Positions 18,105 through 35,814 of a stretch of DNA of 64,000 bases are shown piece by piece. The position numbers and the translations under genes were made by a program. The DNA comes from Anaeroplasma bactoclasticum. GTDB taxonomy: Bacteria > Bacillota_I > Bacilli_A > ML615J-28 > CAG-313. How positions within the stretch are numbered: position 1 is the stretch's first letter; each line of letters starts with the position of its first letter. The stretch spans positions 65,317-129,316 of the forward strand of contig JAMPAL010000001.1 in the NCBI GenBank assembly GCA_023667245.1, written 5' to 3'. The notes below the pieces were generated by a model, which was given only the letters and a program-made list of their open reading frames with translations, searched no databases and was not told the DNA's origin.

Positions 18105-21100
18105 TTAAAGTGCATTGGCTCTTGCAATGATACTTGCAAATTGTTGTACTTTTGCATCAGTCCAATAAGATTCATTATATACATATGTTCCATTCATATA
18201 TAAATCATATTCATCTTGGAACGCCGCATCTAATAATCCAGATGCTTCAAGTTGTTGTTGTACTGTAGTATTTTCTTCAATAATATTGAAAACAATACAC
18301 ATAACAGCCGTTCTTACAGCAACGCATTCATTAATTGTTGCAAAGAATTCTTTCAACTGTGCTTCATCTTGACAAGCATACACATCATTATAATCAAATG
18401 TTGAACCAGATGAAGTTTCAAATGCCATCATTTGATCTAATAAATCCATGATTTGATATGCCTCATCGTTCCAATCTCTATTGTCTGTTGTATCAATACT
18501 TACCTTTGCATTATTAGGAAGATTAAAGAAACCTCTATCATAGAAACGTGTTAACCAAAGTTGTGGTTTAGATATTACAGCATATAAACCATCTTCTTTG
18601 TGTTCTCTTGTTCCAAACATCAAAAGCATAATGGCTTTGGCGTCTTGGAGAGTAATTTCTTTACTTGTACCATACTCTACTTCTTGTAATTTGCTATAGG
18701 CTTCAAATAACTTCTCAAATTCACTAGCCCACTTATCAGGAGTAAATCCTGGGTCAGTGAAATCAACAATATCACGATAATCTTCATTACCAAGCATTGG
18801 TTCTACCTTATCCATATAGAATTGTGGTAAGAATTGTTGTCCAACAAGAGACTTGCTCATTGTGTCAACTACTTTTACAAATTGTGATTGAATCGCTTTG
18901 TCTTCTAATGCACTTGAAGATACGTTATTGATATCCATTAACTTACTTAAAGATACAAGTTCTTTTAAAGCATCCATGAATACAACTTGTTCAACTGCCC
19001 AATCTTGAACCGCATCAAAATCAAATGTATATGCTTTTAATGCATCAACGCGTTTTACAACTGCATTGAGTAATCTTGTTTCTAAGCCTTTTGTATACTC
19101 TAGTGCAAAGAACTCTTCTGCAAGTGTTAGGATTGGATCTAAATTATTATAATCTAATCCACCTTCAAAATAGCCTAGGTCAACTACTGCTTTTAAGATA
19201 TCGGAAATGTGAGCATAGTCACTCATTAATTTTTCATCTGTGTAAGATGTTTGATATAAACGATTAATATATTGATTGAATCGATTGCCAAATAATTTTT
19301 GAGCTAATTTCTCAGCAAATTGTCTTGCTACTAGAGGAAGAATAATTGATTGCTCCATATGTGGAGTAGCGTTAGCTACTGCATCTAAGAATGCATTATT
19401 CTTCATTGTAGATTTGTCATGAATATCAATCGTTGGTAATACACTTTCTACTTCACGAAGAGCACTAGCCAATCCTTGATATTCCATCTCCCAGTTTACA
19501 CCAGAGAAATCAACATCACGAATATCTACACCTACTACATAGCAAGCGTATTGCATCAATTGGTCTAAGTATGGTGCAAAACTTGTACTATGAACTGCTA
19601 TATCAGCAAAATCAATAATACCTTGAGCATTCTTATAATCAATTGTCTTCTTGAATAGTCCAAGAGCATTGGCTTTTTCTACAATGTTAAATACATCTGG
19701 TAAGAATGTATTGACAAATGTCTTACTATCCATATGTTCTAAAATTGTGATTTCAACGATATCCTTTGTGAAGATACGTACAATACCATCTGCAATTGGT
19801 GTTGCAATTTGTTCAAGTACTTTTGATTCAAATGCTTGATTTACTAAAGCAGTCACTTCATTTTGGAATGCTTGATCACCAAATAATTCATATTTGTCTG
19901 TCTTCAATTGATCACCATAACGTTCAACCAAATCAAGAGCTTTCATCATTGCGCGATAAATTGCTTTTAATTCTGCTTTTAGACTACCTTCTGGATATAC
20001 CAAATCCACTTTACCAAGTACATACATATTCTTCTTTAATTTATTGATTGGTGTCATTGTTTTATCTGATAAATCAAATACATTTGTGAACACACCAAAC
20101 AAACGATCTGTATTTTCTGGATGTGTGAAATCAATTCCATCATTACTGAAAGCACCCATATCAAGTAAGGCATCTAATACAACACCAAATTCTTGACAAA
20201 GTGGTTCAATTGAATTTTCATCAATACCTAATCGATGAGCAAGATTTGCATTTTCAAGTTTAGGTAATACATATTTTTCATATCCCCAGCTAGAAATTGC
20301 TTTGAACACATTTGTGTCTAATGCACCATGATATAATGCAACAACTGCGCTCATTAATTCTGTGTTACCTAGATGTTGAAGTTTAACTTTAAGTAATCCT
20401 GTTTTTGCAACAATCATTAAGATCTCTTTTGCATATGCAGAAAGGATCTTACCATCATTCGCTAAATCAACACCTGTTAAATCAAGATCACTCATATCTA
20501 TTTCACCAACAAAGGTGTTAGCAAAATGAACAAGTTCTTGTTTCTTTTGATCTACAAAGTTTAGAGCAAAGACTTCTTCAATGATAGTTTGTGCAGGGAT
20601 TATGCACTCATCTTTGGTCACATTGTCTTTAATACTTCCAGGAACAGCATCCATTTGAGCTATTGCTCTTGTAATACGTGCAACACGTGCCATATCTTCG
20701 TCTAAATCAGCAATTGTGTATTCATCCAAATTACCTAGTTCACCAAGTGATACAGGTAAGCGATGATATACATATCTATTGTATAGAGGTTTAAATAATT
20801 GATTAAAGGCATCAGATAAATCTAATGTTTCCATTACTACTGCTAAACTATCTGTGTCAGCAAGTCTAGCCATAGCTTTCATTTCAGATTGAATATTGGC
20901 TCTATTGAGAGATTTAATATACGCGTATACTTCTTTTACTGTATTCCAACCACATGATTCAAATACTTCAATACCTTCTGTAATTAGTGTACGTAAGTAA
21001 GCAAACTCATTTTCCCAATTTATGCCACTTAAATCAATCTCATTGGTGATTACACCCAATGTTTCTAGTGCTTCTAAAAGAACTTCACTTCTATTAGCTA

Positions 21101-24100
21101 AGCAATGTAATGCTTCAAGATTATCTACTATGCTATTTAAAGCTTCTGTTCTTGTAATCTCTGCTGTTTGAGCATCTAATGTTGATATTATTTTACCCGT
21201 AAATGGAATATCTTTATTCTTCACAGCGTCAATAATACCAAAATCAACAAGAGTTCTAACTAGTGTTGCAGAAAGAAGAGCATCTTCTTTTACTTGAGCA
21301 AAAGTAAGTCCATCAAATGATACTGCAGCAACTACACCACGATATTTTTCAGGAACTTTTGTTTCTACAAACTCTTTTAATTCAGGAAGTAGCAATTGAT
21401 AAGTTGTTGTTTGAACAAGTTTATCATAAGCATCCACAAAATTATATCGATATAGGTTTGTACCACTTAACATATCTTTAGTGATATTGAATCCACTATT
21501 CATAAAGACACGAATATCTTTATATGTAGAGAATGGATTGTATTTGCTTGTTAAATAAGGAACTAAATCTTTGTACATTTGTGCAAATAAACACATATCA
21601 CTAGCAAAGTCAAATTCACTTGAGTGTAATGCTTGAATACTGAATGGTAAAATAGAACGTCTATCTACAAAGTTAATGATTTGATCCATATGATACTTGA
21701 AGTAATTCATATCTGCTAAACTTGACAAAATAGTCTCAACTGCATCTACATTTGCATAATCAATATTTTGATTATTTAAAATAGATACAACATCTAACTG
21801 ATGAAGTGCTTTGACTAATGCTGTAGCAAGAGTTAAATCTTCCATAAATTCTTCATTTGTATACATACTTAAATCACTTGCATGACCTAAAGTTAATGAG
21901 TATTGTTCAATAAATGGTGTAACGATATTATTCATCATCGCTAATCCATTTTCTTGTACAAGTGTCATACGAGATAATGCACTCATTATATTTTCCATCA
22001 TTACCCAATTTGCTTCTTGACTTAAGAAGGCTTTCATACCTGCTTTATTCATCAATTGCTGAATATAGGCTTTTGCGTCTTCTATATTGTTGATATTTTC
22101 TCTAGCAAACAAATCATATAACTCATTCATTACTAGTTTCATATCATCTTTATCTAACTCAAATACAGTTGTTTCAAACTTGAATGCATCTTCTGCAATT
22201 TCAAATCCAGCAATCTTCTTACCATTGATAAAGTCTTTAGCAATTAATGTAAGTACAGCTTCCATATGTCCATTTAACATATCTAGTGCAACCACATCAT
22301 CAAATATACGCATTACCATATCACGCATTTGTTCTGTAAAGTATGCTTTATTTTCAATAGTTGTAGTTAAATCCATTTCTTTCATAGCAAAGACAATATC
22401 TTCTAAATATGGAATATCATGCTCTACAACATCTAAAGTCAAGTGTTCTAAGTCAAGTGCTTCATAATATTGAGGTGCGAACTTTTTCATAAGAGGAAGG
22501 GATACTAATAAAATAGCAGGCCCAGTCTTTTCATAAATCGTCGTATCCATATAAGTTAAGATGAAGTCTAATGTATTTTCATAGAAACTTGCTTGTCCGA
22601 GTAATTGCATGTTGAAGTTTTTATTCTTCACATCAGCATTGCTATTGATTGTCCAATATTTATTTTGTGTAATGTTATAGAAATAACTATACATTTCAAT
22701 TATCTTAGGTGCATCTGCTTTTAAGTTTACACCATCAGCAGTAATATCACTTAAGTCTTGTGAAACTAATCCATCTACAGCTTTGATTACAGCATCAAGT
22801 CTACCATCATTATTGAAGTAATATAAACCAAATAAATGATTTACTACTGTTTCAACTACATCAGCACGATCAAATGGATATGGTGCATCTTCTTTTACAA
22901 TCTTGTATAAATCTAATGTACGAATCGATTCAATTGTTGTGGCAAATGCACTTAAATCGGCTGTAAATTCTTGTGGATGATTGTAAATTTGGTGAATACC
23001 AATTAAATCAAATAATTTATTATCCTCTTTTACATATTTTTCCGAAACAGGGAAAGCAATTGCTTCTACTAATTCGGATTCGCTACATAACTTAGCTAAA
23101 TCAATCATTGCATCTAAATATGTATCTGTTTGTTCGTTTACTTTCCACAATTCTTGGACAAATTCTTTAGTGAATAATGCTTTGATTTGAGAAAGTGTAT
23201 TGGCTTGTTTAGCGTTGAAAACGCGATATGCAATACGAACAACTTCATTTACTTCAGACCAAGTTTGCTTATAGTCAATTGTACTCAAAGCCATTGAAGT
23301 TGTGTTAATACCTAATTTATCAAATAATGCAGTTAATAGATTTTGTTCATTATGACTCATGCAATTTAATGCTTGCATCTTATCGATTGCAGCATTGATA
23401 ACATCTGCTGTAGATACATCAATTGCACCACCAAATAGCATAAACTCAAGCATTCCATAATCCAATAATTCACGACTCATAGATGCAAGAGTATGTACGT
23501 CTGCTACTAACTCTTCTTTTGTTGCATCAATGAATAAATATTCCATTGCAAATCCTTTTTGACCAGTAAACTTAGCCATATGCATTGCGAATGTTGGTAA
23601 TAATACTTGAAGTGTTTTTACCTCAACTGCTTGATCAATACCATTGACAAAGGCGTTTGCTACATTACGATTCAATGTAGCTTCATCTTTATAGTTCTTA
23701 TTCTTGAAGATACCTAAAATATCTTTTACTGTTAAGACATTAGATGCAACATAAGCGGCTTTAAATTCTTCTAATGCTTGAACAAGTTGTGGAACCTCAT
23801 CTTTGAATACAATACCTTCAAATAAACTTGCTTCTACTCTATCACTTGATTTTAATGCTTCTAATGTTTTGTTTGTTGCAAGTGTTGCTATATCTGCCCA
23901 CTTCTTATTCAAAATATGAAGTTCACTCACTGCTTTGACAATTTCTTCATAATCATTGAAATGAAGTGACATTTCTTCAAATTGAATTGCTTTAAGACAT
24001 ACATCAACCAATTCTGCACGAATGATTGGAACAATAGCATTGGATAATTGTTTTAAATCACTTGATAATTCTTCTTTTGTGAATGCATCTTTTAAGAAGG

Positions 24101-27100
24101 TTACATCTATTCCTTTTACTTGATCTAATCCATAATTGAAGAATACAGGAAGCATCACTTCTACTACTTTAGAATCAGCAATTTCTGATACAAATGTAGC
24201 TAAGTCATACCCCATTGACACATCATAGCATTCTGCTTTTGCATATGTCTTGTCATTGAAGAAAGCAACTACATCCGCAATCGTACTTAATCCCTTTTCA
24301 TCCATCATAGCTTTGAAGGCCACAACAGCTTTTTGGAATGTCTCAATTTCAGTTTCAAATACAACTTGATTAAAGTCCTCTAGTGTTACTTTAGCATCTA
24401 ATTTTGCAAGACTATATACTTTATTTACACCTAATACTAATAAATCTTTATAGAATAGATTAGCTACATTCAACTGACCTACTTGATCTAAAATAGCATT
24501 AATGATAGATGCATCTAAATCTTTACCTTCTTGTTTGAAATAATAATCACTAATACCTAATTCATATACAAGTGGTAAAATCGTTGCCATTGTCTTTAAG
24601 TCTTCTACTTGAAGTGCGCCATTATAACGATCATTTTGTAAGAAAGCTAAATCTAAATTCTTGCTTGCAGCATATACTACTGCATAGTCAATTGCACTAG
24701 GAAGAACGATTTCTGCCAATTGAAGATGAGCTACCGCATCTAAAATATTTGCTGCTGCATTTACAGAAGCTTCAGTATAGAAACCATTTGCATTATAATC
24801 TTTACGTTTCATCATTTCTGTTAAGTCTTTTAATGAAGTATATTCAAGACTATCCATTAATAAACCTATACTTCTTACGACTTCAGCCAATTGTTTAAAC
24901 TCAAGTGCATAATCTACTGTTTCTAAATCTTGAGATGTAATATCAATTACAATGTCTTTGATAGCTAAATCTAGTGTTTCAACTACTGTAGATAATAATT
25001 CTACAATATGTTTTTGAATCATATGGAAATCATATAATCCATCCACCATTTCAGCTATTTTTTCAACATTTAAGTTTTGAATATCTTTTGTAGTGATGTA
25101 TTCTAATGCGCCTACTGTTACCGCATCTTTTAAATATGCAACTAATAATTTCGCGTCTTCTACCAATTCTACTTGATTCAAATCTTCTAATACAAATGAA
25201 TATTGAATATGTTTTTCATCTAAATAAGTAATGATATGTGTTGTAGCAGTAGGTAATAAGACTTGTACAGTTTGTACATCTAGTAATACATCTAATGCTT
25301 CTAATAATGGATTTACTACTGCCTCATTTGCATATTTAGCATCTTTATAGTAACCCTCTCTAACAATATCAATTACATTCTTTACAGTAGAAAGATTTGC
25401 AGCAATACAAGTTTGATCCAAGTTTTCTAATGCTTGAACAAGTTGTAAAGCTTCATCTTTGAATACAATACCTTCAAATAAACTTGCTTCTACTCTATCA
25501 CTTGATTTTAATGCTTCTAATGTTTTGTTTGTTGCAAGTGTTGCTATATCCGCCCACTTCTTATTCAAAATATGAAGTTCACTTACTACTGTGATGATTT
25601 CTTCATAATCGTTGAAATGTAACATCGTATCTTCAATCTTTGTACCAAACATAACATCAATCATTTCAGCTCTATCCATTGGTGCTACTGCTAACAATAT
25701 TTGTCTTGCATCTTGTACCAATTCCTCTTTTGTAAATGCGTCTTTTAAGAAGGCTACATCTACTCCTTTTACTTGATCTAATCCATAATTGAACACATCT
25801 GGTAATAAGAAAGCAACTGTTTCTAAATCTAATGTTTCACGTGCTAAATCCACTAATGCATCTAGAGTTGCCCCTTTATAGAATGCTCTATATTGATAAT
25901 CTTTGTTATTGATAATCTTCATTACATCTTTCAAAGATGTATATTCTAAGCTATTCATTAATGGACGAATAGCTAAAATAGCTTCTGCAAGTGACGTAAA
26001 TTCATTTTGATATTGAATAGTTTCAAAATCTGCTAATGTCACATTGAATGAAATAACTACTTTCTTTGTTGCTATTTTGAACAATTCATTCATCAAGTTT
26101 GGTGCATGTTTTTGAATCATATGGAAGTCATATAATCCATCCACCATTTCAGCTATTTTTTCAACATTTAAGTTTTGAATATCTTTTGTAGTGATGTATT
26201 CTAATGCGCCTACTGTTACCGCATCTTTTAAATATGCAACTAATAATTTCGCGTCTTCTACCAATTCTACTTGATTCAAATCTTCTAATATGAATGCAAA
26301 ATCTTTTGTTGCTTCATTTTTAGTCAATTGATCGTGCCCCACATTAGCAACCGTTGGTAATACAACTTGTAAAGTTTGTGTATCAAGTAAGGCATCTAAC
26401 GCATCTAGTAATGGATTTACTACAGCTTCAGTTGCATATTTAACATCTTTATATGCCTTGTATTGCATGATATCAATTACATCTTGTACTTTTACGATTG
26501 ACGCATTTTCAAATGATTGTTGTAATGATTGAATCGCTTGAACAAGACTAGCTACTTCATCTTTAAAGGCAATACCTTCAAATAGATTTGTTTCTACCCG
26601 ATCCTCTACCTTTATTGCCTCTAATACTTGGTTTGTTGCAAACGTTGCAATGTCTGCCCATTTGTAATTTAAAAGATTTAAATTACCTAAAACAGGAACC
26701 ATTTCTGAGTAAATATCCATATGAAGTGGTAATTCTTTTACATCTAATCCAAATACTAATTTGATAAGCTCAGCTTGAATAGCAGGAACAATTAACTTCG
26801 CTACAGTACGAATATCTTCTACCCATTCTTCTTTTGTTAGTGCACCTTTTAAGAAAGATAAATCCACTTTTTTGACTTGAGTTGCTACCAAATCAATCAT
26901 ATCTACAAGTACCAATTGAAGAATTTGAGAATCTACTACTTCTACTAAAATATCAGAAAGAATTTCACCAGTTTCCACATCATAGAATGCTTCTTTCTTA
27001 TATGTATCTCCGCTTATGAATGCTTGAATATCTGTTATAGAACGTAAATCTTGTTTGTCTAATACTCTTTGTGCATTTCTAATGATTTGTGCAAGAAGGG

Positions 27101-30100
27101 TAAATTCTTGTTTTACATCAATTGTCTTCACTTGTGAATCAGTTACAAATAGAGTATCGTTCCACTTATCATTGATTAATTTCAATCCATAGTTGATAGC
27201 ATTAAACAATAATTCGCTTTCATTTGCTTGTACAACATTTAAATCATACATATGCTCAACAATATCAGCAACCTTATTTAAGTCAACCATTTGAATATTC
27301 TTTGTTCTTAAGTATTCTATAGCACCAAATGTGATTGCTTCATCGAGAATATTCGCTAATGTGCCTAGATCTTCAATCAATGCTTCTTTAGAAACTTGAG
27401 CTAAATAATCAATAGAGAACGGAACTTGACCTGAACGATTAGCTAAATTAATCAAATATTTAAAGCCTTTTTCAATGATGTTACCTAGCAATTGTGATTC
27501 TTGTAAGGTTCTTAGTGCATCTGTAGCAATATAACCTACTTCATCAGTCAATACGGTTGGATAAGTATACCACTTATCTTTAAAGAAGTTTACTGCAGCA
27601 TACATCGTTTGAACATTTGCTGTTTCAAAGAAATCGTATCCTAATGCAAGGAGTTCTTTGATAACTTCTTTTTCACTTGCCCAGTTAATATTTCTAAAAT
27701 CAAAATCAGCTTTGCTTAGTTCAAATACTTGATCTTGTGCATAGAGCTCAATCAATTTATCATAAACTGCTTCTGCTAAACGACCATTTGCACATTGTAC
27801 TAAATTTAATTCATATAAATCATCAACAACTGAAAGAACTACAGATTCATTAGGTAAAGGCATTTCGCCTTTTTCTCTATCAAGATAGTAATCTACAATA
27901 GATAAATCTTCTACTAATTTGTGAGCAATTGTCACTAAACTATGGAAATCATCTACCAATTGTTCATTTGTAAGTTCATAGATATAATCCAATTGAATAC
28001 CTTTTTCACCAAGGAATTTTACACCATATTTGATACCTAGTGGAATAATTGCATCAATCACTTCTACATCTGCAATTTTATCAATGATATTCAATATACT
28101 TGTGGCATTGGCATCTGTTACATATGTGTCATATTCATGATTACCTTTAAGAATACCTTGAATAATTTCGATTGCGGCATTTACATCAGCAACTTGATTT
28201 TCTTTAAATAAAGCAACAATATCTGTAATGATATTCTTGTATACCGCTTTTTGTCCTTGCCAATCTACATTAGAGAAGTCTTCATTGATGGCACCAAGTT
28301 CAATCTTCAGTAATGATGCAATATAATTTACACCCCAAGATAATGTTGCTTCTTCATGACCACGGAATAACTCCATATCATGTAATGCATCAATAATATT
28401 GCAAAGGGCATCACTCAATTGATCATTGATAGCGATATTGCCTTCTTTGGTCAAGAATGTTTGTGCATCCACAGAAACAAGTTGATCTAATACATATACC
28501 AAGCAACGTAAATCATGTGCAAGCGTTTGTCCACTTGCATTGGTTACATCTAGTTCTTCTACAATGCTCTTGAAATCTTCTGGAATGATATTTTTAGCTT
28601 CTACATAAGTATCATAAATAGTAGGAAGTAAAACTTCAATTAATTTAGAACCACTTACATTTGTGTCCTCATAAGTACCAAATAATACTTTTACACCATT
28701 GACTAAAGCTTGTGCATTTTCATTTTCTGCCCAGAAATTTAAATCAAGAATCAATTGATTTTGCTCATTAAATAGGGTGAATGATTCATCTTGTAATACA
28801 TTACTAATTTCATCAATGAAAGATAATAGAATATCTTTTTCACCTGTATAATCTAACTCAATTAATTGGTTGTATACATCTCCATCTTTTTCAATGTCTA
28901 AAAGACCAGAAACTTTTAACAATACACGAATGATTCTACCTTCAAAACCTTGGATGATTTTAGAATCAAAGATACCCGAAACAATGGTCTTCATTGCATC
29001 TACTTGTTCTAATGCAAGAGCATGTAATCCATCATCTTTGATGTCCAATACATTTAAATCAACAGCGGCTTTTACAACATCAACCAATTTGATCACTTCA
29101 TTGACCAATTCTTCCGAAGAAATATGATCTAAAATATCTTTAATCAAAGCGCTATCATCTATTGTTTCTAATTTTTCAATTTGTGGTACCAAATATTTAT
29201 CTAAAACATTTGGTAATACAGTTAATACCAATTGAGATTCAACAATGTTTTCAAGTGCTTCTACTACATAATCTAAGAATGTATCATTTTCTAACAATTG
29301 TTCTATATTCTCAGTCAAACTAGAAAGATTATAAATATCAAATCCTTCTACATCAATCAATTTTGCATACGTATCAATCAAACTTAAAATAACAATAGTT
29401 TCATTGTTCCAATCTACATTTTGGAAAGCATCTTCTTCTAAAACTTCAATCCAACCAAATTGTCTCATAGAAGCAAGAACAAGCTTATTCTTTAATTGAT
29501 TGTCACCAAGAATATGTAATCCTAATGCTTTTTCTACAATCAATTTTAAATTAGCAATAGCTTGATCACTTGTAAGATCTAAGTTTTGATATACAAAAGG
29601 ATTTAAATTGTCTAATACTTTGATTTCATTGGCAGCCTTAGCAATATCCAAAATATCTTTTAAATCTTCTTTCCATTCTTCACTTGACATACCATTTACA
29701 TCTACAATGTCACCAAACTCATTTGCTTTTTGATCAATAAATTCATCTAAGAACTTTTGCATTGTAGGTGTACCTGCAAGTTTATACAATTGCAAATCAA
29801 CCAATTGACTAGCGAATGTATTCGCAGATTCAAATTTATCTGTATTTTCTAAAATATCTTGAACAATATCTACCCAATTTTTAGTTTGGAATTCTTCAAC
29901 AGATTCAAAACCAAAAGTAAGGAATGTTTCATATAGACTCACTAATTGGCCTAATTCTTTATCCCATACTACTTGACTGAAATCGACATTGTCTAAAGCA
30001 TGTTTAGTCATATCTTGAACTTTTTCTATCGAAACTCCAACCGTTACAGCAATATTGATAATTTCATTCATCCTTTGAGATGAAAATAATTTGTTGACCA

Positions 30101-32501
30101 CACTACGTAAAATAGTGGCATCTAAGTGTAAATAATCTGCTGTTACTCTGTTCGGAAATTCTTCAAAGTTAGCCAAATTAGCAGCTTCTCTAACTGCACT
30201 TACAATCTTTTTCAAATCATCAGTAGTGAGTGTCTCTTTTAATTTTTCTACGGCTTCTAATTGTTTTGCATCTTCTAATAATTTTCGAATTTGCTCTTGA
30301 TGAAGTGCGTAGTCAATTCCTACTGGAACCACAACTAAATCTGCAATTTGAAGAGATAGAATGTGATGTACCATGACCAATAAATCATCCAATTGATTTG
30401 AATCATTTAAAATATCATGTAAAATGCTATTATAATTTTCTTTTACATTTTCAATCGTCTTCAAGTCAAACTTTTGTACTTCTTCATAAATGTTAACAAT
30501 AGAATGGAATTCTTGTTTCCAATTGACTTCTGTAAAATTGATTTGATCTAATGCATCGCCCACAATTTCTTTCACTTGAGCTTGATTGAGTCCTACTGCA
30601 AGTCCAATTTTAACTACATCATATAAACTTGAAGTTTTTGTTTCTTCATCTAATGTTGAAAAAATTTGATCTACAACCGCATGTAAAATGGCTACATCTA
30701 AATTCAAATAATCAACTTGGATTGTCGGATAATTCGAAAAATCAATTAATGGTAATGCTGTTTTTACACCAGCCACAACTGCTTTTAAATCTTCAATCGT
30801 CATTGTAAAACGAAGATCACTAAATGCACCAAGCTGACCAGCATCTTCTAAAAGTTTTTTGAATCCTTCAAGATTAGAAGCATATTCAATTCCAGAAGGT
30901 ACAGCAATTTGTTTGAGTAATTCTACTTCTAATGCTTGATTAATGATTTCAAACAATGCCTCTGTTTTACCCACATTGTTTAGAATATCTTTAATAAGTG
31001 CATTGGTATCTAACCCTTCAAATGATGTAACACCAAATGTTTGGAAAGTAGCATACATATCCACAAGGATATTCAATTCCTTTTTCCAATCTATGTCTTC
31101 AATACCACTTACAAATTGATAACCGATCCATTCTACAACCTTTTCATGAGATAACCCTGTATTGATTGCAATTGGAAGTATTTTTTGAATCAATTCTGTT
31201 TTTGCAAGTACATTCACAACATTTCTAACTTGCTCTGCATTCATTGTCAAATAGTTGAATTGATCAAGTGGGAAAATACCTAATTGGTATGCTTCTACAA
31301 TAGCATCTAAAATGGCATCTAAATCTTTACCCCAGTTGATATAACGCAGACTTAAATAGTCTGAGTCTTGATATGCATTTTCTAGTGCTTTTTGAATAGC
31401 AGGTATTTCATATCCGTATTCAATCGCTACAGGCATACCCTCAACCAATAACTTTGATTTTTTCAATGCATTTAAGGCATTTTTCAATTCTTCAATTGAC
31501 CATTTTTCGGGATTGGATTTGCCATTTAATGCATTTGCAGCTTTGATAAAAGTGATTAATTCTTCACTTACACTAATATTTTGGTTTTTTGTTTCAATTC
31601 TTAGCAAATCATCAAACAAACTTTCACTAAATGATTTACCAAAGAAATAACTAGATGCATTTGCAAATTTACCTAGACCACTTTCGTCATAGGCTTTTGC
31701 AAAATCAAATATCATTTCAATTGGATCATCTGTTGAGGTTGTTTGTTGTTCTTTCCCATTTACCAAATCGGAAATCATCCCTTTGGTTTCAGGAGTAGCT
31801 GTGTTAAGAACTGTACAAATCCCAGAAAGTGGCACACAAACCAAAATAACTACAAAGACACCTTTCAATGACCCCGCAAGAGCCCCCCACCAGCGTTTTT
31901 TTCCAGCAGGTTTCTTGACCAATTCATTTGCTTCTTTCGTTACTACAGCTTCTTCGACACTTTCTTCGCCAGTAGAAATGACAACTTGTTCTTTTTCTGA
32001 AACAGTTGTTTTTTCACTAGCTGCTTGTTCTATAGGTTTTTTCTTCTTAGCTGCACGAATAATCAATTCAATCATATGTGTAATCAAACGAATGATTGGA
32101 GAAATGATTAATACAACTAATGTGCCAGCAAGTAATCCGACTGCACGGAAGATGGCGCCGACAACACTATAGAAAAGCGTGTACGTTTCCTTTCCTTCAA
32201 CTAGTAAACCCTCTCCATTTGGAATAACTGATCTAGCATACACTAAAATAGCATCCCAAATTGTAGAGATAGAATCATCTTGAATACCTAGCATTTCAGC
32301 AACTTGTTGGCCTGCCTTTACATTGAGTAAAGTGGCTTGATCACCGAATACTAGCCAAGATAAAACTAGTAAAACTATGAAAACGGCTACGCACCTTAGT
32401 TCTCTTTTTAGTCCACCTAAAAAGCCCCAAAGCGCGAAAAGTAATACTATTGCTAGCAATCCCAAACCAGCAAATAGTAAGATTTGATTAAAATCCATCA
32501 T
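18105..32501 (-). CDS. Giant (about 4,800 aa) membrane-anchored acidic helical-repeat protein with a CvpA-like N-terminal TM domain; function unknown
   Basis: Uninterrupted 14.4-kb ORF. The track start at 32507 is a GTG lying inside the AGAGGTG RBS, so ATG 32501 (or 32498) is more likely. The N-terminus has 4-5 hydrophobic helices (DFNQILLFAGLGLLAIVLLFALWGFLGGLKRELRCVAVFIVLLVLSWLVF; ...VGLLAGTLVVLIISPIIRLI; WWGALAGSLKGVFVVILVCVPLSGICTVL) with a Lys-rich loop. The remaining ~4,550 aa are Leu/Ile/Asp/Glu/Lys/Val-rich and helical-looking, with a recurrent [VI][DN]W-x2-E motif about every 180-190 aa and no catalytic or anchoring motif I recognise. It has its own promoter and terminator. Confidence 0.9.
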   Translation of the reverse strand: MMDFNQILLFAGLGLLAIVLLFALWGFLGGLKRELRCVAVFIVLLVLSWLVFGDQATLLNVKAGQQVAEMLGIQDDSISTIWDAILVYARSVIPNGEGLLVEGKETYTLFYSVVGAIFRAVGLLAGTLVVLIISPIIRLITHMIELIIRAAKKKKPIEQAASEKTTVSEKEQVVISTGEESVEEAVVTKEANELVKKPAGKKRWWGALAGSLKGVFVVILVCVPLSGICTVLNTATPETKGMISDLVNGKEQQTTSTDDPIEMIFDFAKAYDESGLGKFANASSYFFGKSFSESLFDDLLRIETKNQNISVSEELITFIKAANALNGKSNPEKWSIEELKNALNALKKSKLLVEGMPVAIEYGYEIPAIQKALENAYQDSDYLSLRYINWGKDLDAILDAIVEAYQLGIFPLDQFNYLTMNAEQVRNVVNVLAKTELIQKILPIAINTGLSHEKVVEWIGYQFVSGIEDIDWKKELNILVDMYATFQTFGVTSFEGLDTNALIKDILNNVGKTEALFEIINQALEVELLKQIAVPSGIEYASNLEGFKKLLEDAGQLGAFSDLRFTMTIEDLKAVVAGVKTALPLIDFSNYPTIQVDYLNLDVAILHAVVDQIFSTLDEETKTSSLYDVVKIGLAVGLNQAQVKEIVGDALDQINFTEVNWKQEFHSIVNIYEEVQKFDLKTIENVKENYNSILHDILNDSNQLDDLLVMVHHILSLQIADLVVVPVGIDYALHQEQIRKLLEDAKQLEAVEKLKETLTTDDLKKIVSAVREAANLANFEEFPNRVTADYLHLDATILRSVVNKLFSSQRMNEIINIAVTVGVSIEKVQDMTKHALDNVDFSQVVWDKELGQLVSLYETFLTFGFESVEEFQTKNWVDIVQDILENTDKFESANTFASQLVDLQLYKLAGTPTMQKFLDEFIDQKANEFGDIVDVNGMSSEEWKEDLKDILDIAKAANEIKVLDNLNPFVYQNLDLTSDQAIANLKLIVEKALGLHILGDNQLKNKLVLASMRQFGWIEVLEEDAFQNVDWNNETIVILSLIDTYAKLIDVEGFDIYNLSSLTENIEQLLENDTFLDYVVEALENIVESQLVLTVLPNVLDKYLVPQIEKLETIDDSALIKDILDHISSEELVNEVIKLVDVVKAAVDLNVLDIKDDGLHALALEQVDAMKTIVSGIFDSKIIQGFEGRIIRVLLKVSGLLDIEKDGDVYNQLIELDYTGEKDILLSFIDEISNVLQDESFTLFNEQNQLILDLNFWAENENAQALVNGVKVLFGTYEDTNVSGSKLIEVLLPTIYDTYVEAKNIIPEDFKSIVEELDVTNASGQTLAHDLRCLVYVLDQLVSVDAQTFLTKEGNIAINDQLSDALCNIIDALHDMELFRGHEEATLSWGVNYIASLLKIELGAINEDFSNVDWQGQKAVYKNIITDIVALFKENQVADVNAAIEIIQGILKGNHEYDTYVTDANATSILNIIDKIADVEVIDAIIPLGIKYGVKFLGEKGIQLDYIYELTNEQLVDDFHSLVTIAHKLVEDLSIVDYYLDREKGEMPLPNESVVLSVVDDLYELNLVQCANGRLAEAVYDKLIELYAQDQVFELSKADFDFRNINWASEKEVIKELLALGYDFFETANVQTMYAAVNFFKDKWYTYPTVLTDEVGYIATDALRTLQESQLLGNIIEKGFKYLINLANRSGQVPFSIDYLAQVSKEALIEDLGTLANILDEAITFGAIEYLRTKNIQMVDLNKVADIVEHMYDLNVVQANESELLFNAINYGLKLINDKWNDTLFVTDSQVKTIDVKQEFTLLAQIIRNAQRVLDKQDLRSITDIQAFISGDTYKKEAFYDVETGEILSDILVEVVDSQILQLVLVDMIDLVATQVKKVDLSFLKGALTKEEWVEDIRTVAKLIVPAIQAELIKLVFGLDVKELPLHMDIYSEMVPVLGNLNLLNYKWADIATFATNQVLEAIKVEDRVETNLFEGIAFKDEVASLVQAIQSLQQSFENASIVKVQDVIDIMQYKAYKDVKYATEAVVNPLLDALDALLDTQTLQVVLPTVANVGHDQLTKNEATKDFAFILEDLNQVELVEDAKLLVAYLKDAVTVGALEYITTKDIQNLNVEKIAEMVDGLYDFHMIQKHAPNLMNELFKIATKKVVISFNVTLADFETIQYQNEFTSLAEAILAIRPLMNSLEYTSLKDVMKIINNKDYQYRAFYKGATLDALVDLARETLDLETVAFLLPDVFNYGLDQVKGVDVAFLKDAFTKEELVQDARQILLAVAPMDRAEMIDVMFGTKIEDTMLHFNDYEEIITVVSELHILNKKWADIATLATNKTLEALKSSDRVEASLFEGIVFKDEALQLVQALENLDQTCIAANLSTVKNVIDIVREGYYKDAKYANEAVVNPLLEALDVLLDVQTVQVLLPTATTHIITYLDEKHIQYSFVLEDLNQVELVEDAKLLVAYLKDAVTVGALEYITTKDIQNLNVEKIAEMVDGLYDFHMIQKHIVELLSTVVETLDLAIKDIVIDITSQDLETVDYALEFKQLAEVVRSIGLLMDSLEYTSLKDLTEMMKRKDYNANGFYTEASVNAAANILDAVAHLQLAEIVLPSAIDYAVVYAASKNLDLAFLQNDRYNGALQVEDLKTMATILPLVYELGISDYYFKQEGKDLDASIINAILDQVGQLNVANLFYKDLLVLGVNKVYSLAKLDAKVTLEDFNQVVFETEIETFQKAVVAFKAMMDEKGLSTIADVVAFFNDKTYAKAECYDVSMGYDLATFVSEIADSKVVEVMLPVFFNYGLDQVKGIDVTFLKDAFTKEELSSDLKQLSNAIVPIIRAELVDVCLKAIQFEEMSLHFNDYEEIVKAVSELHILNKKWADIATLATNKTLEALKSSDRVEASLFEGIVFKDEVPQLVQALEEFKAAYVASNVLTVKDILGIFKNKNYKDEATLNRNVANAFVNGIDQAVEVKTLQVLLPTFAMHMAKFTGQKGFAMEYLFIDATKEELVADVHTLASMSRELLDYGMLEFMLFGGAIDVSTADVINAAIDKMQALNCMSHNEQNLLTALFDKLGINTTSMALSTIDYKQTWSEVNEVVRIAYRVFNAKQANTLSQIKALFTKEFVQELWKVNEQTDTYLDAMIDLAKLCSESELVEAIAFPVSEKYVKEDNKLFDLIGIHQIYNHPQEFTADLSAFATTIESIRTLDLYKIVKEDAPYPFDRADVVETVVNHLFGLYYFNNDGRLDAVIKAVDGLVSQDLSDITADGVNLKADAPKIIEMYSYFYNITQNKYWTINSNADVKNKNFNMQLLGQASFYENTLDFILTYMDTTIYEKTGPAILLVSLPLMKKFAPQYYEALDLEHLTLDVVEHDIPYLEDIVFAMKEMDLTTTIENKAYFTEQMRDMVMRIFDDVVALDMLNGHMEAVLTLIAKDFINGKKIAGFEIAEDAFKFETTVFELDKDDMKLVMNELYDLFARENINNIEDAKAYIQQLMNKAGMKAFLSQEANWVMMENIMSALSRMTLVQENGLAMMNNIVTPFIEQYSLTLGHASDLSMYTNEEFMEDLTLATALVKALHQLDVVSILNNQNIDYANVDAVETILSSLADMNYFKYHMDQIINFVDRRSILPFSIQALHSSEFDFASDMCLFAQMYKDLVPYLTSKYNPFSTYKDIRVFMNSGFNITKDMLSGTNLYRYNFVDAYDKLVQTTTYQLLLPELKEFVETKVPEKYRGVVAAVSFDGLTFAQVKEDALLSATLVRTLVDFGIIDAVKNKDIPFTGKIISTLDAQTAEITRTEALNSIVDNLEALHCLANRSEVLLEALETLGVITNEIDLSGINWENEFAYLRTLITEGIEVFESCGWNTVKEVYAYIKSLNRANIQSEMKAMARLADTDSLAVVMETLDLSDAFNQLFKPLYNRYVYHRLPVSLGELGNLDEYTIADLDEDMARVARITRAIAQMDAVPGSIKDNVTKDECIIPAQTIIEEVFALNFVDQKKQELVHFANTFVGEIDMSDLDLTGVDLANDGKILSAYAKEILMIVAKTGLLKVKLQHLGNTELMSAVVALYHGALDTNVFKAISSWGYEKYVLPKLENANLAHRLGIDENSIEPLCQEFGVVLDALLDMGAFSNDGIDFTHPENTDRLFGVFTNVFDLSDKTMTPINKLKKNMYVLGKVDLVYPEGSLKAELKAIYRAMMKALDLVERYGDQLKTDKYELFGDQAFQNEVTALVNQAFESKVLEQIATPIADGIVRIFTKDIVEITILEHMDSKTFVNTFLPDVFNIVEKANALGLFKKTIDYKNAQGIIDFADIAVHSTSFAPYLDQLMQYACYVVGVDIRDVDFSGVNWEMEYQGLASALREVESVLPTIDIHDKSTMKNNAFLDAVANATPHMEQSIILPLVARQFAEKLAQKLFGNRFNQYINRLYQTSYTDEKLMSDYAHISDILKAVVDLGYFEGGLDYNNLDPILTLAEEFFALEYTKGLETRLLNAVVKRVDALKAYTFDFDAVQDWAVEQVVFMDALKELVSLSKLMDINNVSSSALEDKAIQSQFVKVVDTMSKSLVGQQFLPQFYMDKVEPMLGNEDYRDIVDFTDPGFTPDKWASEFEKLFEAYSKLQEVEYGTSKEITLQDAKAIMLLMFGTREHKEDGLYAVISKPQLWLTRFYDRGFFNLPNNAKVSIDTTDNRDWNDEAYQIMDLLDQMMAFETSSGSTFDYNDVYACQDEAQLKEFFATINECVAVRTAVMCIVFNIIEENTTVQQQLEASGLLDAAFQDEYDLYMNGTYVYNESYWTDAKVQQFASIIARANAL
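23797..23927 (-). repeat. Intragenic direct repeat R2, copy a (inside the giant gene)
   Basis: 131 nt, identical to 25453-25583 except for one position (t/c). The offset is 1,656 nt (552 codons, in frame). It encodes ...LHILNKKWADIATLATNKTLEALKSSDRVEASLFEGIVFKDE. Confidence 0.9.
25008..25192 (-). repeat. Intragenic direct repeat R1, copy a (inside the giant gene)
   Basis: 185 nt, identical to 26106-26290 except for one position (a/g). The offset is 1,098 nt (366 codons, in frame). It encodes LEDLNQVELVEDAKLLVAYLKDAVTVGALEYITTKDIQNLNVEKIAEMVDGLYDFHMIQKH. Confidence 0.9.
25453..25583 (-). repeat. Intragenic direct repeat R2, copy b
   Basis: See copy a (23797-23927). A third, diverged copy lies near 26560-26690 (LNLLNYKWADIATFATNQVLEAIKVEDRVETNLFEGIAFKDE). 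Confidence 0.9.
26106..26290 (-). repeat. Intragenic direct repeat R1, copy b
   Basis: See copy a (25008-25192). Confidence 0.9.
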
Positions 32502-32534
32502 TTTCACCTCTTTTTTTCATGACTTTACTCATTT

Positions 32535-32563
32535 ATTCTACCAAATTTTTATTTTTTTTGCAA
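32535..32563 (-). promoter_or_regulatory. Putative sigma-A promoter (extended -10) for the giant gene
   Basis: On the minus strand: TTGCAA (32558-32563), a 17-nt spacer, then TGgTAGAAT (-10 is the complement of 32535-32540). It lies about 30 nt upstream of the start codon and the AGAGGTG RBS. Confidence 0.5.
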
Positions 32564-32696: not shown

Positions 32697-32732
32697 TCAA
32701 AAAAGAATTCAAATCGATGGATTTGAATTCTT
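32697..32732 (-). terminator. Strong rho-independent terminator between the ~1,000-aa gene and the giant gene
   Basis: 13-bp perfect stem aagaattcaaatc (32703-32715) / gatttgaattctt (32720-32732) with a 4-nt loop. On the minus strand it is followed by a T-run (complement of 32699-32704). It begins 10 nt after the stop at 32742. Confidence 0.7.
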
Positions 32733-32741: not shown

Positions 32742-35738
32742 TTATAATATCTCTAAATATGTTAAAACCGCAGCAATCACAGCGCTTTCTTCTACTTGAG
32801 TAGCTAGTTCTGGATAATCTTGAATGTTAAATTCTGCTTGTTGACTAATTGCTTCTTGATATGTAGTCAATGCACTAGTTAAGGTGGTTGCTTCTTTAGT
32901 CCAATCTACATTTTCATCTATTTCTAGGCCTTCATTTCCAACCACTTGTGATAACATATCATAGGTTAAATCTGTACTATTTTCGATTTGATCAAGTGTA
33001 GAAAAAGCCGTAGACAATCGTTGTATTGTTTCATCGGTAATATGATTTTTATCAGTATCTTGAATAGCTTGCGCAATATCAATCATATGTCCCATCGTTT
33101 GTGCATACATCTGTAGCGATTCTGGACGTGTAAAATCGTATTTAGGTTGATGTGTGATATCATCTATTGGTAAAATGTTCATTCCCTTTTCACCTAAAGC
33201 ATCATTTAAAAGTTGTCCTATTACTTTTGAAGCAAGAATAGATGTACTTGATTGCATCATGATTTGTTCAACTGCACTTCCTTGGATGCTATCAGTTTGT
33301 ACTTGGCCAGTTAGCGTATCTTTTAAGAATATATGTTTGCTATTTTTTAACACTTCTACAAGTACACCTAATTCTTGACTCATTGTATGTTGCATGATGA
33401 TTTCTTTTTCTTGTTCCGTAAGCGTCATTGTAAATTCAGTTTGTTGTAATACAATATCCAAAAGTGTAAACGTATAGGGTTGCATGATATGAGAAACATA
33501 CATATCATCAAAGAATCCACCCACTTTTTCAGCTATATCTAAAGCATTATCTAGTGTAGATATATCCTTTTCTAGGAAAGAAAGATCTGTACTTAAATCA
33601 ATAATATCTAATAACACTTGTTTTAACCGAGGTTGTTCTTCATCCCAATTGGTTGGCGTGCTTGGTGCGGTATAACTTATATATTGATTCATCCCACTCA
33701 TATCTAAAAATATTTGTACCAACTGCTGTTCATTCTTTTGCAACAATTGTAAACTGAGTAAACAATCTAGTAATTGTTCTACTTGTAATTTGGTCTTTTC
33801 ATCTGTTAAATCAAGTTGATAAGTTTGATTGGTGTCAAAATGATCTTTCAATCGAATCTCTTGTGCTATTCGATATGCATTAAAGAAAGCTTCCACATCG
33901 CTTGAAAAATCTTGTTGAAGATAGTCTACTTGAATCAAATTGACAATGGACTCAAATTCGGAATCGCGTGTTGCTTTTTGTAACATCACAATGACTGCTG
34001 GTAAATAATACGTTTTGGCAAGAGTAGAGCGATTTAAATCTTCAATTATCGTTTGAATAATGCCTGCCGTGTGTTCATTTTCTAACAATTTGGATAAATC
34101 GTTTTGATCAAAAGGGCAAGTTAAAACCAGTTCATATGCATCTATACAAATATCAAATAAGACCTCTGTTTCTTTTGACCAATCTACTTCTTCTTTTATG
34201 AACGCCTCTATATCAATTCCATACTCACTCACATCAAAACTTTTTTCAATTTGATGTGCCATCTTTTCTAAGATTAATGGGTAATTATCCTTTAACAAAT
34301 AAACGCACAAAATATGACGTTTAGCTTCTTGCAATTGTTTTTTTAACTCACTTGTAAATGTATATGTTCCTTCTACTTTCCGAATATAATCCAATACTTT
34401 GGTTTCTTTTAGCAATTGATATGCACTGACCACTTCTTTTACATCGCTTGCCAGATGCGTTTGAATATATATCTCATTGATCCAATCTGTCACAAATGCA
34501 TATTCAGTTTCTTTGAAATAATCTTGTAAATAAAAATAAGATACTTTTGTAAAGCACTCCTCAAACAATTCAACCTCCATTGCCTTTGTTAAAGCATCGC
34601 TAAAATCGGTTGCAAATGTATCACTTTCTAATAATTGTTCAGTTTGAAAATCATCTAAATTGATATGTTGAAGTAACTGATAAACTGATTTTAAAAAAGG
34701 TTCTGTTTCTGAAAAGTTTTGGTTAATATCTAATTTGGATAACCGATCAAAGTCTAGATTCCATTTTTGAATATCTAATTTTTCTTGTTCGGTTTGTAAA
34801 TAGCCAATGATATATGGATAAAATGCTTCAATAACTTTACTATCTCCTAAATAAGTACAAAGTAAATGGATATCTTCTTCTGTAAGCAAATCTAATTTTT
34901 CGTTATTTGAAATATCTTGTGATGCACCTTCTGCAATATCTAAAACCCGTGGTAATATAGGGGAAAGCGAATCTATTTCTTTAACAAAATTAATGGTTAC
35001 ACCATTGGTTTTGATTTGAAATACATTACCTAAACGTTTGGCCGCTAAACCAAAGGAGCCATTTTCTTTTTTACCTAATGTCTTCGTTGTCTTCAATATA
35101 AAAGATGAAGACACCATTTCATTTAAATTCTCTGATTGTTCCACATAACTTTCGTCTTGTTTTGCTGCTTCTTCTAATGCTTTTTGTGTTACTTCTACAG
35201 CACCATATAGTGGTAAAACAAAGATGTAAAACATAAACACAAATCCAATCAAAGCTATTCCTAAACCAAGTAGTCGGTCTAGCAATAACCGATGTTTTTT
35301 CTTTCTTATCCCAGGAAGTACTAAAAAGAAAATAAATCGCAATAATGGTGCTCCAATCAATAACCATACAATAGCAAAAGAAAGGCAAATGATAAATCGT
35401 CCTACTGAAATAGCCATATCTTCAATCAAAATATCCATTTTTGCTTCCTTTAATTTATTCATATCACCTTCAAAACACTGATTGGCAACACTTTCTTCAA
35501 TCCATGTATAAAGAGAAGTTTCTTCTTCTGTAAAAACATGATTTTCTATATAGATGACTTTTTTCGCTGCTCTTCCTGCAAAGATAAAACAAAGTATAAG
35601 GGGAACAATTTTAATTGCTACAATAATTCCTGTTCGAATTGTCCCTTTCGTAAAGCCTTTTAATAGTGCTATCAAACCGATGAAAAGCACAAAAATATCA
35701 ATTCCTAAAACAATCATTTTGAATGTCTCATTACCCAT
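32742..35738 (-). CDS. ~1,000-aa paralogue of the giant protein: CvpA-like N-terminal TM domain plus acidic helical-repeat region; function unknown
   Basis: The first ATG (35747) directly abuts AAGGAGG, so the ATG at 35738 (MGNETF...) has better spacing. TM block: GIDIFVLFIGLIALLKGFTKGTIRTGIIVAIKIVPLILCFIFA; ...FIICLSFAIVWLLIGAPLLRFIFFLVLPGIRKKKHR; LGLGIALIGFVFMFYIFVLPLY. An acidic helical region follows, carrying the same motif as the giant protein (VDWSKETEVLFD, TNWDEEQPRLKQ, VDWTKEATTLTS). Confidence 0.85.
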   Translation of the reverse strand: MGNETFKMIVLGIDIFVLFIGLIALLKGFTKGTIRTGIIVAIKIVPLILCFIFAGRAAKKVIYIENHVFTEEETSLYTWIEESVANQCFEGDMNKLKEAKMDILIEDMAISVGRFIICLSFAIVWLLIGAPLLRFIFFLVLPGIRKKKHRLLLDRLLGLGIALIGFVFMFYIFVLPLYGAVEVTQKALEEAAKQDESYVEQSENLNEMVSSSFILKTTKTLGKKENGSFGLAAKRLGNVFQIKTNGVTINFVKEIDSLSPILPRVLDIAEGASQDISNNEKLDLLTEEDIHLLCTYLGDSKVIEAFYPYIIGYLQTEQEKLDIQKWNLDFDRLSKLDINQNFSETEPFLKSVYQLLQHINLDDFQTEQLLESDTFATDFSDALTKAMEVELFEECFTKVSYFYLQDYFKETEYAFVTDWINEIYIQTHLASDVKEVVSAYQLLKETKVLDYIRKVEGTYTFTSELKKQLQEAKRHILCVYLLKDNYPLILEKMAHQIEKSFDVSEYGIDIEAFIKEEVDWSKETEVLFDICIDAYELVLTCPFDQNDLSKLLENEHTAGIIQTIIEDLNRSTLAKTYYLPAVIVMLQKATRDSEFESIVNLIQVDYLQQDFSSDVEAFFNAYRIAQEIRLKDHFDTNQTYQLDLTDEKTKLQVEQLLDCLLSLQLLQKNEQQLVQIFLDMSGMNQYISYTAPSTPTNWDEEQPRLKQVLLDIIDLSTDLSFLEKDISTLDNALDIAEKVGGFFDDMYVSHIMQPYTFTLLDIVLQQTEFTMTLTEQEKEIIMQHTMSQELGVLVEVLKNSKHIFLKDTLTGQVQTDSIQGSAVEQIMMQSSTSILASKVIGQLLNDALGEKGMNILPIDDITHQPKYDFTRPESLQMYAQTMGHMIDIAQAIQDTDKNHITDETIQRLSTAFSTLDQIENSTDLTYDMLSQVVGNEGLEIDENVDWTKEATTLTSALTTYQEAISQQAEFNIQDYPELATQVEESAVIAAVLTYLEIL

Positions 35739-35814
35739 CTTTGACATCCTCCTTATTTCTTACATTCTGCTATATTATACTACAAATCTATGCTTTATTC
35801 AAGTGTTTCTGCCA

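Follow-up and report, generated by a model that had tools for sequence, protein, structure and literature searches.

Adjoining genes for paralogous giant proteins with a diverged CvpA-like membrane module and a long acidic repeat region, predicted to be helical, in Anaeroplasma bactoclasticum

Background

What is made by a single gene of 14.4 kb in a bacterium with a small genome? The question is raised by a stretch of 64,000 nucleotides (nt) from Anaeroplasma bactoclasticum (GenBank assembly GCA_023667245.1, contig JAMPAL010000001.1, positions 65,317 to 129,316 of the forward strand; hereafter the window, to which all coordinates refer), in which two adjoining open reading frames (ORFs) on the minus strand encode a giant protein of about 4,800 amino acids (aa; gene G) and a partner of about 1,000 aa (gene S). 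An initial annotation had described the pair as paralogues in which a CvpA-like membrane anchor precedes an enormous acidic region of helical repeats located outside the cytoplasm, with no characterised family to which the architecture could be assigned. The analysis reported here assigns G and S to a family of polytopic membrane proteins that is small and had not been described, supports their membrane module as a remote homologue of CvpA, and leads to a model in which their repeat regions may be rod-like fibres at the cell surface.

Results and Discussion

Two intact genes with one architecture

Both ORFs are intact at the positions first given for them (18105-32507 and 32742-35747), and only the start of G has to be moved. 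The listed ORF of G extends to a GTG at 32507 (4,800 codons), which sits inside the ribosome-binding site AAGAGGTG; since the ATG at 32501 comes after this site, this ATG is probably the true start, so that G occupies 18105..32501 and encodes 4,798 aa. The product started at this ATG begins with MMDFNQ, as do its relatives, and is identical to NCBI MCM1513440.1, which is recorded as 'MAG: hypothetical protein [Anaeroplasma bactoclasticum]' (MAG, metagenome-assembled genome); every database copy that was looked up is unnamed or called 'hypothetical protein'. The ORF and translation of S (32742..35747) give a product of 1,001 aa. All parts of G and S described below are on the minus strand, with residues of G numbered from the GTG.

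The two products are built alike. In G, a diverged CvpA-like module of four membrane helices, with a long third loop that is flanked by K/R and predicted to be cytoplasmic (31788..32501, to aa 240), is followed by a conserved segment past the last membrane helix (FDFAKAYDESGLGKF...IETK...; 31101..31787, aa 241-469) that includes a first degenerate repeat unit, by a core array of 19 clear units of ~185 aa delimited by self-BLAST offsets and hidden Markov model (HMM) matches (20520..31100, aa 470-3996), and by a C-terminal region of ~4-5 degenerate units that is the least conserved part (18108..20519, aa 3997-4800). In S, the CvpA-like four-helix module (35178..35747, aa 1-190) is followed by two diverged copies of the repeat unit of G (33714..34730, aa 340-460 and 519-678) and by a C-terminal partial unit (32808..32915, aa 945-980) that opens with the motif VDW..E.

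By sequence comparison, G and S are true paralogues, as the initial annotation had proposed. BLASTP of S against G yields a weak match (E 0.001). The paralogy follows from three results: S reaches 34.7 bits with a repeat profile derived from G only, compared to a maximum of 4.6 over 200 shuffles, with domain E values of 1.3e-9 and 5.2e-8 and matches at aa 340-460, 519-678 and 945-980; the N-terminal modules of G-type and S-type proteins match each other at 99.6% in hhalign (E 1.9e-23, 197 columns); and a segment past helix 4 is shared, reading ...G.GKF...FFG.S.S..LFD...IETK in G and FG..AK..G...IKTE in S.

The repeat array and its predicted fold

The repeats are seen only at the protein level, since Tandem Repeats Finder returns nothing inside G or S when applied to the DNA. 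Self-BLAST of the whole protein gives the identity match only; the period emerges when G is compared with itself in chunks, with offsets of 184-193, 367-372, 551-553, 736-742 and 919-930 aa. Iterated HMMs place 24 units between aa 304 and ~4628, with a weaker signal to ~4766: a first degenerate unit matched at aa 304-442, the 19 clear units between aa 470 and 3996, and C-terminal matches at aa 4201-4295, 4334-4483, 4516-4628 and up to ~4766. The modules of ~190 aa that had been suspected are thus real, the offsets being multiples of ~185 aa. The repeat part amounts to ~4,560 aa in G (~24 units) and ~810 aa in S (2-4 diverged copies), and the units of G are only 9-27% identical to a reference unit, except one at 65%. 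The motif [VI][DN]W..E, the recurrence of which in both proteins was part of the earlier case for paralogy, occurs six times in G (shuffle mean 0.08) and twice in S (shuffle mean 0.02), and each occurrence falls at the start of a repeat unit. Acidic residues (D+E) make up 15.6% of both proteins and basic residues (K+R) 8.3% of G and 8.1% of S, giving G a net charge of -350. A direct repeat of 191 nt with 98% identity lies inside G (25008-25198 and 26106-26296, two units apart) and is the only near-identical DNA among its otherwise diverged units.

AlphaFold2 models one unit, from an input alignment of 19 paralogous units, as an all-helical domain of ten helices with a predicted local distance difference test score (pLDDT) of 86.9 and a predicted template modelling score (pTM) of 0.78. 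Two consecutive units (aa 1976-2343), from an alignment of nine, are modelled as all-helical with pLDDT 87.0 and pTM 0.80, and the junction between them has pLDDT 81-90 and no disordered linker. These models predict that the helices of the repeat region run on as one uninterrupted array, and that the units are not beads strung on flexible linkers.

This unit could be matched to no characterised family in Pfam, NCBIfam, the sequences of the PDB, the folds of the PDB or the folds of BFVD, in agreement with what the initial annotation had stated. Foldseek finds nothing at E < 1 in the PDB with the one-unit and two-unit models or in BFVD with the one-unit model; the repeat profile finds nothing among PDB sequences; and Pfam yields no recurrent family on 19 single units and no match on the C-terminal 800 aa of G or the segment past the fourth membrane helix. 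The best Foldseek matches include tape-measure and tail proteins, which were rejected (best E 1-2, TM-scores <= 0.26), and the scattered Pfam and NCBIfam matches in parts of G and S to CRIC_ras_sig, Myb and TAFII28 are noise at the level of chance, none of which recurs. Neither this repeat unit nor a CvpA module with a tail of several thousand residues was found in the domain, structure and literature libraries searched. The ~185-aa unit is therefore put forward as a confidently modelled, all-helical candidate for a new domain family, with no match in Pfam, the PDB or BFVD.

A remote relationship of the membrane module to CvpA

Hydrophobic blocks are found at ~aa 3-35, 35-63, 110-151 and 206-238 of G and at ~aa 7-34, 35-62, 110-148 and 153-187 of S, and four clear blocks recur in 38 of 42 relatives. 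A K-rich sequence precedes the last block in both proteins, so that the N-terminal hydrophobic blocks and Lys-rich loops (AAKKKKP / IRKKKHR) recorded earlier are present in each. In an alignment of the module, residues G26, G30 and P224 are near-invariant (G26 and G30 in at least 90% of sequences) and an R..G motif ahead of helix 4 is conserved. CvpA has a conserved Asp that opens helix 1 and conserved glycines (GXXXG) (bioRxiv 10.1101/2020.09.25.314492). S-type proteins keep this Asp (GIDIF and similar); in G-type proteins the aligned residue is Gly, and an invariant Asp is found at residue 3.

The proposal that this module is a CvpA-like anchor holds as remote homology, but not as Pfam membership. 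The Pfam family Colicin_V (PF02674) matches S at residues 16-192 (profile positions 1-127 of 144) with 15.5 bits and E 0.018, below the gathering threshold of 29.3 bits, and does not match G. It is the only recurrent Pfam family among the N-termini of 26 relatives, with 11 of the 26 matching at E <= 0.1, and no member tested reaches the Pfam cut-off (best E 1.7e-4). A reference alignment of CvpA was assembled from eight sequences, drawn from plasmid and chromid matches, that comprise E. coli CvpA, the identity of which was confirmed at 98.8%, and the products of seven diverse genes from proteobacteria. Against this alignment, the combined family profile scores 95.1% in hhalign (E 3e-8), with 128 columns aligned collinearly between helix 1 and helix 4, and the S-type profile scores 94.6% (E 7e-8) over 126 columns, collinear over four helices. 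The same alignment reversed, as a control, scores 0.8-1.7% with the three query profiles (combined, S-type and G-type), and a block-shuffled alignment gives only local, single-block matches with the combined profile. Against the single E. coli CvpA sequence, hhalign gives 51.7% and covers helix 1 only, and when S and the N-terminal profile were used as queries in a word-indexed homologue search, the matches were close relatives and fragments that carry no Pfam labels, with no bridge to CvpA. These profile comparisons support the module as a remote homologue of CvpA rather than a member at the level of Pfam, with the copy in G the more derived.

The likeness to CvpA (162 aa in E. coli) extends to four membrane helices in the same order, a G-x-x-x-G-x-(K/R)-(K/R) turn past helix 1 and an R-x-x-G...G sequence before helix 4. 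CvpA is predicted to cross the membrane four times and to end in a periplasmic C-terminal segment of species-dependent length that is seemingly needed for function (bioRxiv 10.1101/2020.09.25.314492), and a topology with both termini outside (N-out/C-out) and an outer C-terminal segment of variable length is likewise predicted for G and S. In size the proteins differ: CvpA is a small protein (~160-200 aa) in comparison with the 1,001 aa of S and the 4,798 aa of G; its C-terminal segment has ~40 aa, where S has 810 aa and G has ~4,560 aa; and loop 2 is enlarged in both G and S, and loop 3 also in G.

Topology

The side of the membrane on which the repeats lie was judged from the distribution of charge over 38 relatives with four clear helices. 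The density of K+R is 0.064 at the N-terminus, 0.237 in loop 1, 0.053 in loop 2 and 0.192 in loop 3, and in the 30 aa past helix 4 it is 0.061, with a D+E density of 0.219. Cysteine is low in G (0.42%, compared to near 1% or above in most other ORFs of the window). From this K+R pattern, the predicted topology of CvpA and the low Cys content, the module is most likely N-out/C-out and the repeat region extracytoplasmic. The same location had been proposed from the Lys-rich loop, and it is supported as a prediction by the agreement of positive-inside statistics with the published prediction for CvpA.

No LPXTG, lipobox, Walker A or HExxH motif occurs in G or S, and Pfam and NCBIfam find no wall-anchoring or wall-binding domain (LPXTG, SH3b/DUF5776, LysM, SLH, CWB) anywhere in them, which upholds the reported absence of sorting, wall-binding, catalytic and nucleotide-binding motifs. 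No cleavable signal peptide was seen, as judged without a dedicated predictor; the N-terminus is helix 1 of the module.

The same data bear on a scaffold in the cytoplasm, with the repeats tethered to the inner face of the membrane in a cytoskeleton-like or organising role. Such a scaffold would need no cleavable signal peptide and would spare the cell the demanding export of ~4,560 aa past the fourth helix; many scaffolds of the cytoplasm likewise have acidic helical repeats, and the long third hydrophobic block leaves the helix count ambiguous. The K+R distribution of the 38 relatives, however, is that of an N-out/C-out protein and contradicts the reverse orientation, the family to which the module is related by homology has a predicted outer C-terminus, and the segment past helix 4 is strongly acidic and Cys is low, which together make a cytoplasmic location improbable.

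A narrow family with variable numbers of units

When all 1.84 billion representative proteins were searched with the repeat profile in HMMER, 103 reached E <= 1e-3. Full-length giants account for ~29 of them and range from 3,857 to 6,731 aa and from 16 to 33 units. S-type proteins of ~800-1,200 aa were recovered library-wide, with E values from 4e-19 to 1e-3, and the rest are fragments. All full-length members share the N-terminus of four blocks and the acidic composition. In a scan of one genome per GTDB species, the family occurs in 23 genomes, all of them uncultured MAGs, labelled as Bacilli, Mollicutes, Acholeplasmatales, 'Staphylococcus sp. CAG:324', Staphylococcaceae, Erysipelotrichaceae and, implausibly, Prevotella in one case, with isolate names that indicate an origin in the gut (human, rabbit, goat and deer). 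The family is thus real and narrow, comprising about two dozen uncultured species. The NCBI taxonomy labels are inconsistent, since MAGs with near-identical loci go under the names Anaeroplasma bactoclasticum, Staphylococcus sp. and Prevotella sp.; the lineage is probably one of the uncultured orders of Bacilli with small genomes.

The form of G with 4,797-4,798 aa is present in at least five assemblies, and S has six close clusters with 78-94% identity. A variant of G that is shorter by three units (4,244-4,245 aa) is present in three independent assemblies (P0007/P0140/P0141); the coexistence of forms of 4,798 and 4,244 aa suggests real variation in copy number, and a reproducible collapse in short-read assembly is less likely. 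In seven relatives (P0011-P0013, P0015, P0017, P0018, P0022) the C-terminus is prolonged by a conserved stretch of ~300-400 aa (...GLRQLLQLMN.SK.FD...) which G does not have, and in five (P0010, P0016, P0019, P0020, P0023) the last module is a shorter one of the form '...V(V/I)ADWE.EL'; Pfam has no match to these extensions and modules.

With full-length copies of G in at least five assemblies, the three-unit-shorter form in three, ~29 diverged full-length giants, frames that are open to the locus end in 23 species, a ratio of nonsynonymous to synonymous substitution rates (dN/dS) of 0.11 and units only 9-27% identical to the reference unit, bar one at 65%, the ORF is intact and a very remote chance is left for an assembly artefact, pseudogene or chance ORF in repetitive DNA, to which only the 191-nt repeat of 98% identity and the existence of the shorter variant would point.

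Gene order and selection

The gene murA (35815..37080, minus strand; NCBIfam NF006873, 367.9 bits) is a neighbour of the pair and ends 67 nt upstream of S; no terminator was found between murA and S. Its product keeps the catalytic Cys motif of MurA, YPGGCNFSRRPID. Upstream sequence for both genes is available in 20 related loci, and 18 of these have the order aspA (divergent), murA, S-type gene, giant gene, so that the small and giant paralogues do adjoin murA across genomes, as had been suggested, and this order persists down to ~38% identity of MurA and 34% identity of the N-terminus of the giant. The S-type partners are full-length orthologues of S with 20-35% identity, and they diverge faster than the N-termini of the giants. 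The partner is missing from two loci: in one (L010, 8545-9813), murA is split into two ORFs by a frameshift or as a pseudogene; in the other (L008, 8527-10004), murA is intact. A giant can therefore exist without an adjoining partner. Two loci have an extra gene between the S-type gene and the giant, which encodes a surface protein both times: a BspA-type leucine-rich repeat (LRR) protein of 1,131 aa (LRR_5, Big_4, Flg_new; L023, 5685-9080) and a Big_2 protein of 421 aa (L007, 8448-9713).

Among 22 giants, conservation along G is highest in the first 500 aa and at aa 1100-1400 and lowest at the distal end. Substitution rates were computed against the closest other assembly (L002), which covers the first ~3,480 aa of G. 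The dN/dS ratio is 0.110 for G (0.08-0.15 per bin of 500 aa), 0.109 for S and 0.141 for murA, and the compared part of G is under purifying selection. The synonymous divergence (dS) of G from L002 (10001-20450) is 0.205, about half that of flanking genes (0.40-0.62), and it falls to 0.03 at aa 3001-3500; strains may therefore have recombined recently within G, or undergone gene conversion there.

Comparison with known giant surface proteins

Giant proteins of other Gram-positive and Mollicutes-type bacteria provide the nearest comparisons. Staphylococcal Ebh/Embp is a giant, largely helical, rod-like surface repeat protein of FIVAR-GA modules that is held at the membrane; Ebh has a YSIRK signal peptide, three-helix modules of ~126 aa that belong to known Pfam families, and its membrane anchor is C-terminal; G and S were found to have none of these. 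No known repeat or head family of the kinds FIVAR, GA, DUF1542, beta-solenoid or Ig-like was found in G or S. The adjacent genes for Gli349 and Gli521 of Mycoplasma mobile encode giant surface proteins with membrane-helix anchors in a Mollicutes-type cell without sortase anchoring, and belong to a motility machine with further components; the likeness to G and S is in adjacency and membrane anchoring, with no relation of sequence or fold detected and nothing in the data that indicates motility.

The tandem genes for Giant1-3 of Apilactobacillus kunkeei, a member of Bacilli with a small genome, encode extracellular proteins of 3,000-8,000 aa with imperfect repeat arrays that are predicted to be stiff helical rods, ~5,250 aa being estimated to span 0.2 um (PMC12863079). 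Tandem giant genes with long imperfect arrays of helical repeats are thus common to both systems. Giant1-3 have a Sec signal peptide, an N-terminal beta-solenoid head and a C-terminal SH3b-like DUF5776, and are rich in Asn and Ala (PMC12863079), whereas G and S have a polytopic N-terminal anchor, no head or wall-binding domain, an acidic composition and reversed polarity. There is no detectable relation in sequence, as the exhaustive search with the repeat profile returned only the family described here. As a group, the giant helical-repeat surface proteins of Gram-positive bacteria are analogous to G and S, not homologous; their polarity is opposite, and their anchor, head and repeats are different. 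G and S can be described as giant membrane-anchored repeat proteins, probably of the cell surface, on a newly recognised branch of the CvpA superfamily, and since both halves have recognisable analogues, they are not categorically new.

A model for the pair

The reading preferred here, with a probability of roughly 0.55, is that G and S are membrane-anchored, acidic, rod-like surface fibres. The CvpA-type module of four helices would insert into the cell membrane in the N-out/C-out orientation, and the C-terminal part, in which the short outer tail of CvpA would have been expanded into an acidic all-helical array of ~185-aa units, would be exported via Sec/YidC. The exported array would fold into a continuous and fairly stiff helical-repeat rod, tethered at its N-terminal end, which might be ~0.1-0.2 um in length if it were packed like the giants of A. 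kunkeei. Many such negatively charged rods could produce a brush, a coat or an attachment fibre on small-genome gut Bacilli or Mollicutes-like bacteria, and S would be a basal or partner component, probably co-transcribed with murA in envelope biogenesis. With a base that is conserved, a number of units that varies and no conserved head at the distal end, a spacer or coat is more likely than an adhesin that acts at its tip. Sortases are absent at least from the related orders RFN20 and ML615J-28, and walls are reduced in some (PMC10868615); an anchor in the membrane rather than the wall fits lineages related to Mollicutes.

Several points weigh against this model. Localisation depends on charge statistics and on a topology of CvpA that is predicted, not solved; the third hydrophobic block is ~40 aa long, and two helices there would flip the orientation, which would contradict the K+R pattern. 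The G-type profile by itself matches the CvpA alignment at 14.7% and locally only, so that the link of the G module to CvpA is transitive, by way of the S-type. The continuity of the rod depends on pTM, pLDDT and secondary structure from shallow alignments (19 and 9 units). Purifying selection without fast distal diversification is unlike many exposed antigens, synteny within one clade of reduced genomes may be partly a matter of inheritance rather than function, and no adhesive, wall-binding or enzymatic domain was found in G or S.

The strongest competitor to a fibre that acts as spacer or coat, although a minority prospect, is a specific adhesin or attachment organelle, in which the rod would bind host mucus, dietary particles or other bacteria in the manner of Ebh, SRRP and the Mycoplasma giants. 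The hosts of these genes are gut-associated and have small genomes, genes for surface proteins of the BspA-type LRR and Big_2 kinds have been inserted in the locus, and the distal region and the copy number of the repeats are variable; but the searches revealed no binding head, whether lectin, Ig-like, beta-solenoid or other, the distal end does not form a conserved domain, and a strongly acidic surface argues against binding to anionic mucins or teichoic acids.

Somewhat more doubtful is an envelope sensor or tethered channel, in which the module would keep the activity of CvpA and the array would be an extracellular tether or spring that reports contact or the strain of the wall or matrix. 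In its favour, a connection has been drawn between CvpA and the sigma-E response to envelope stress, and the periplasmic C-terminus of CvpA has been proposed to bind partners or sense stimuli (bioRxiv 10.1101/2020.09.25.314492). The tight linkage of the locus to murA, the membrane module and the adjoining segment as the best conserved parts, purifying selection along the ~3,480 aa compared and the stiff continuous array suggested by the two-unit model also speak for it. Roles in colicin V production and deoxycholate resistance have likewise been ascribed to CvpA. Homology to CvpA transfers no mechanism to G and S, however, because the function of CvpA itself is not established, and the role of an MscS-like channel is a speculation of its authors. 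Moreover, the module of G is more diverged from CvpA than that of S, a range of 16-33 units among giants is odd for a calibrated spring, and the distal end has no partner or anchoring domain. Equally tentative is a further proposal, that of a new envelope device in which a CvpA-type module, perhaps a channel or stress transducer, is coupled to a rod of ~100 nm with an unmatched fold, the rod and S jointly serving as a mechanical tether or sensor or as a load-bearing outer scaffold.

A polymorphic toxin, a phage tape-measure protein or prophage, and a defence system were considered and rejected, as no toxin or phage domain was found; a horizontally acquired island was rejected because the GC content of the pair (0.30-0.33) equals that of the rest of the window.

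Signals and neighbouring genes

A terminator-like hairpin of 13 pairs followed by a T run (32703..32732, minus strand) lies directly past the stop codon of S, and a promoter-like site for G (32535..32563, minus strand) consists of TTGCAA, 17 nt and TAGAAT with a TG extension, being a match to consensus only. Rfam finds no regulatory RNA near G or S.

Downstream of G are genes for two proteins that are probably exported: a GHL10 glycosyl-hydrolase-like protein of 1,346 aa (3811-7851) and a protein of 941 aa with an atrophied Ig domain and a weak match to ExeM/NucH nucleases (10225-13050). On the other side, the gene for an ECF-type sigma factor (176 aa) is clustered with an ORF of 199 aa that matches no family and may encode an anti-sigma factor, and with the gene for an S8 subtilase that has a PPC domain (40327-43340); the cluster of sigma factor and subtilase is kept in three related loci (L001-L003), upstream of the block TetR/DegV/aspA/murA. 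An ORF of 393 aa with weak matches to SMODS/DZF_N nucleotidyltransferases (E ~3e-4) overlaps by 4 nt an ORF of 270 aa, the counterpart of which in L001 carries a PHP domain (44471-46461); the two may be a second-messenger or defence gene pair.

Conclusions

The family to which G and S belong is real, unusual and unannotated, and the function of the two proteins is what we infer from their architecture. CvpA is conserved across bacterial phyla and required for gut colonisation by several pathogens. In the family described here, its tail, predicted to lie outside, has grown ~100-fold and is retained under purifying selection, which points to the tail of CvpA as a functional element and offers a natural system in which to study it. 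If the doubtful proposal of a new envelope device were true, the variable outer C-terminus would be the working end of CvpA proteins, a first functional handle on a widespread and unexplained family, and in wall-reduced gut Bacilli an outer scaffold would partly replace the conventional wall or S-layer. Retention of a single 14.4-kb gene under purifying selection in small genomes implies that its protein is likely to be central to how these bacteria build their surface or interact through it.

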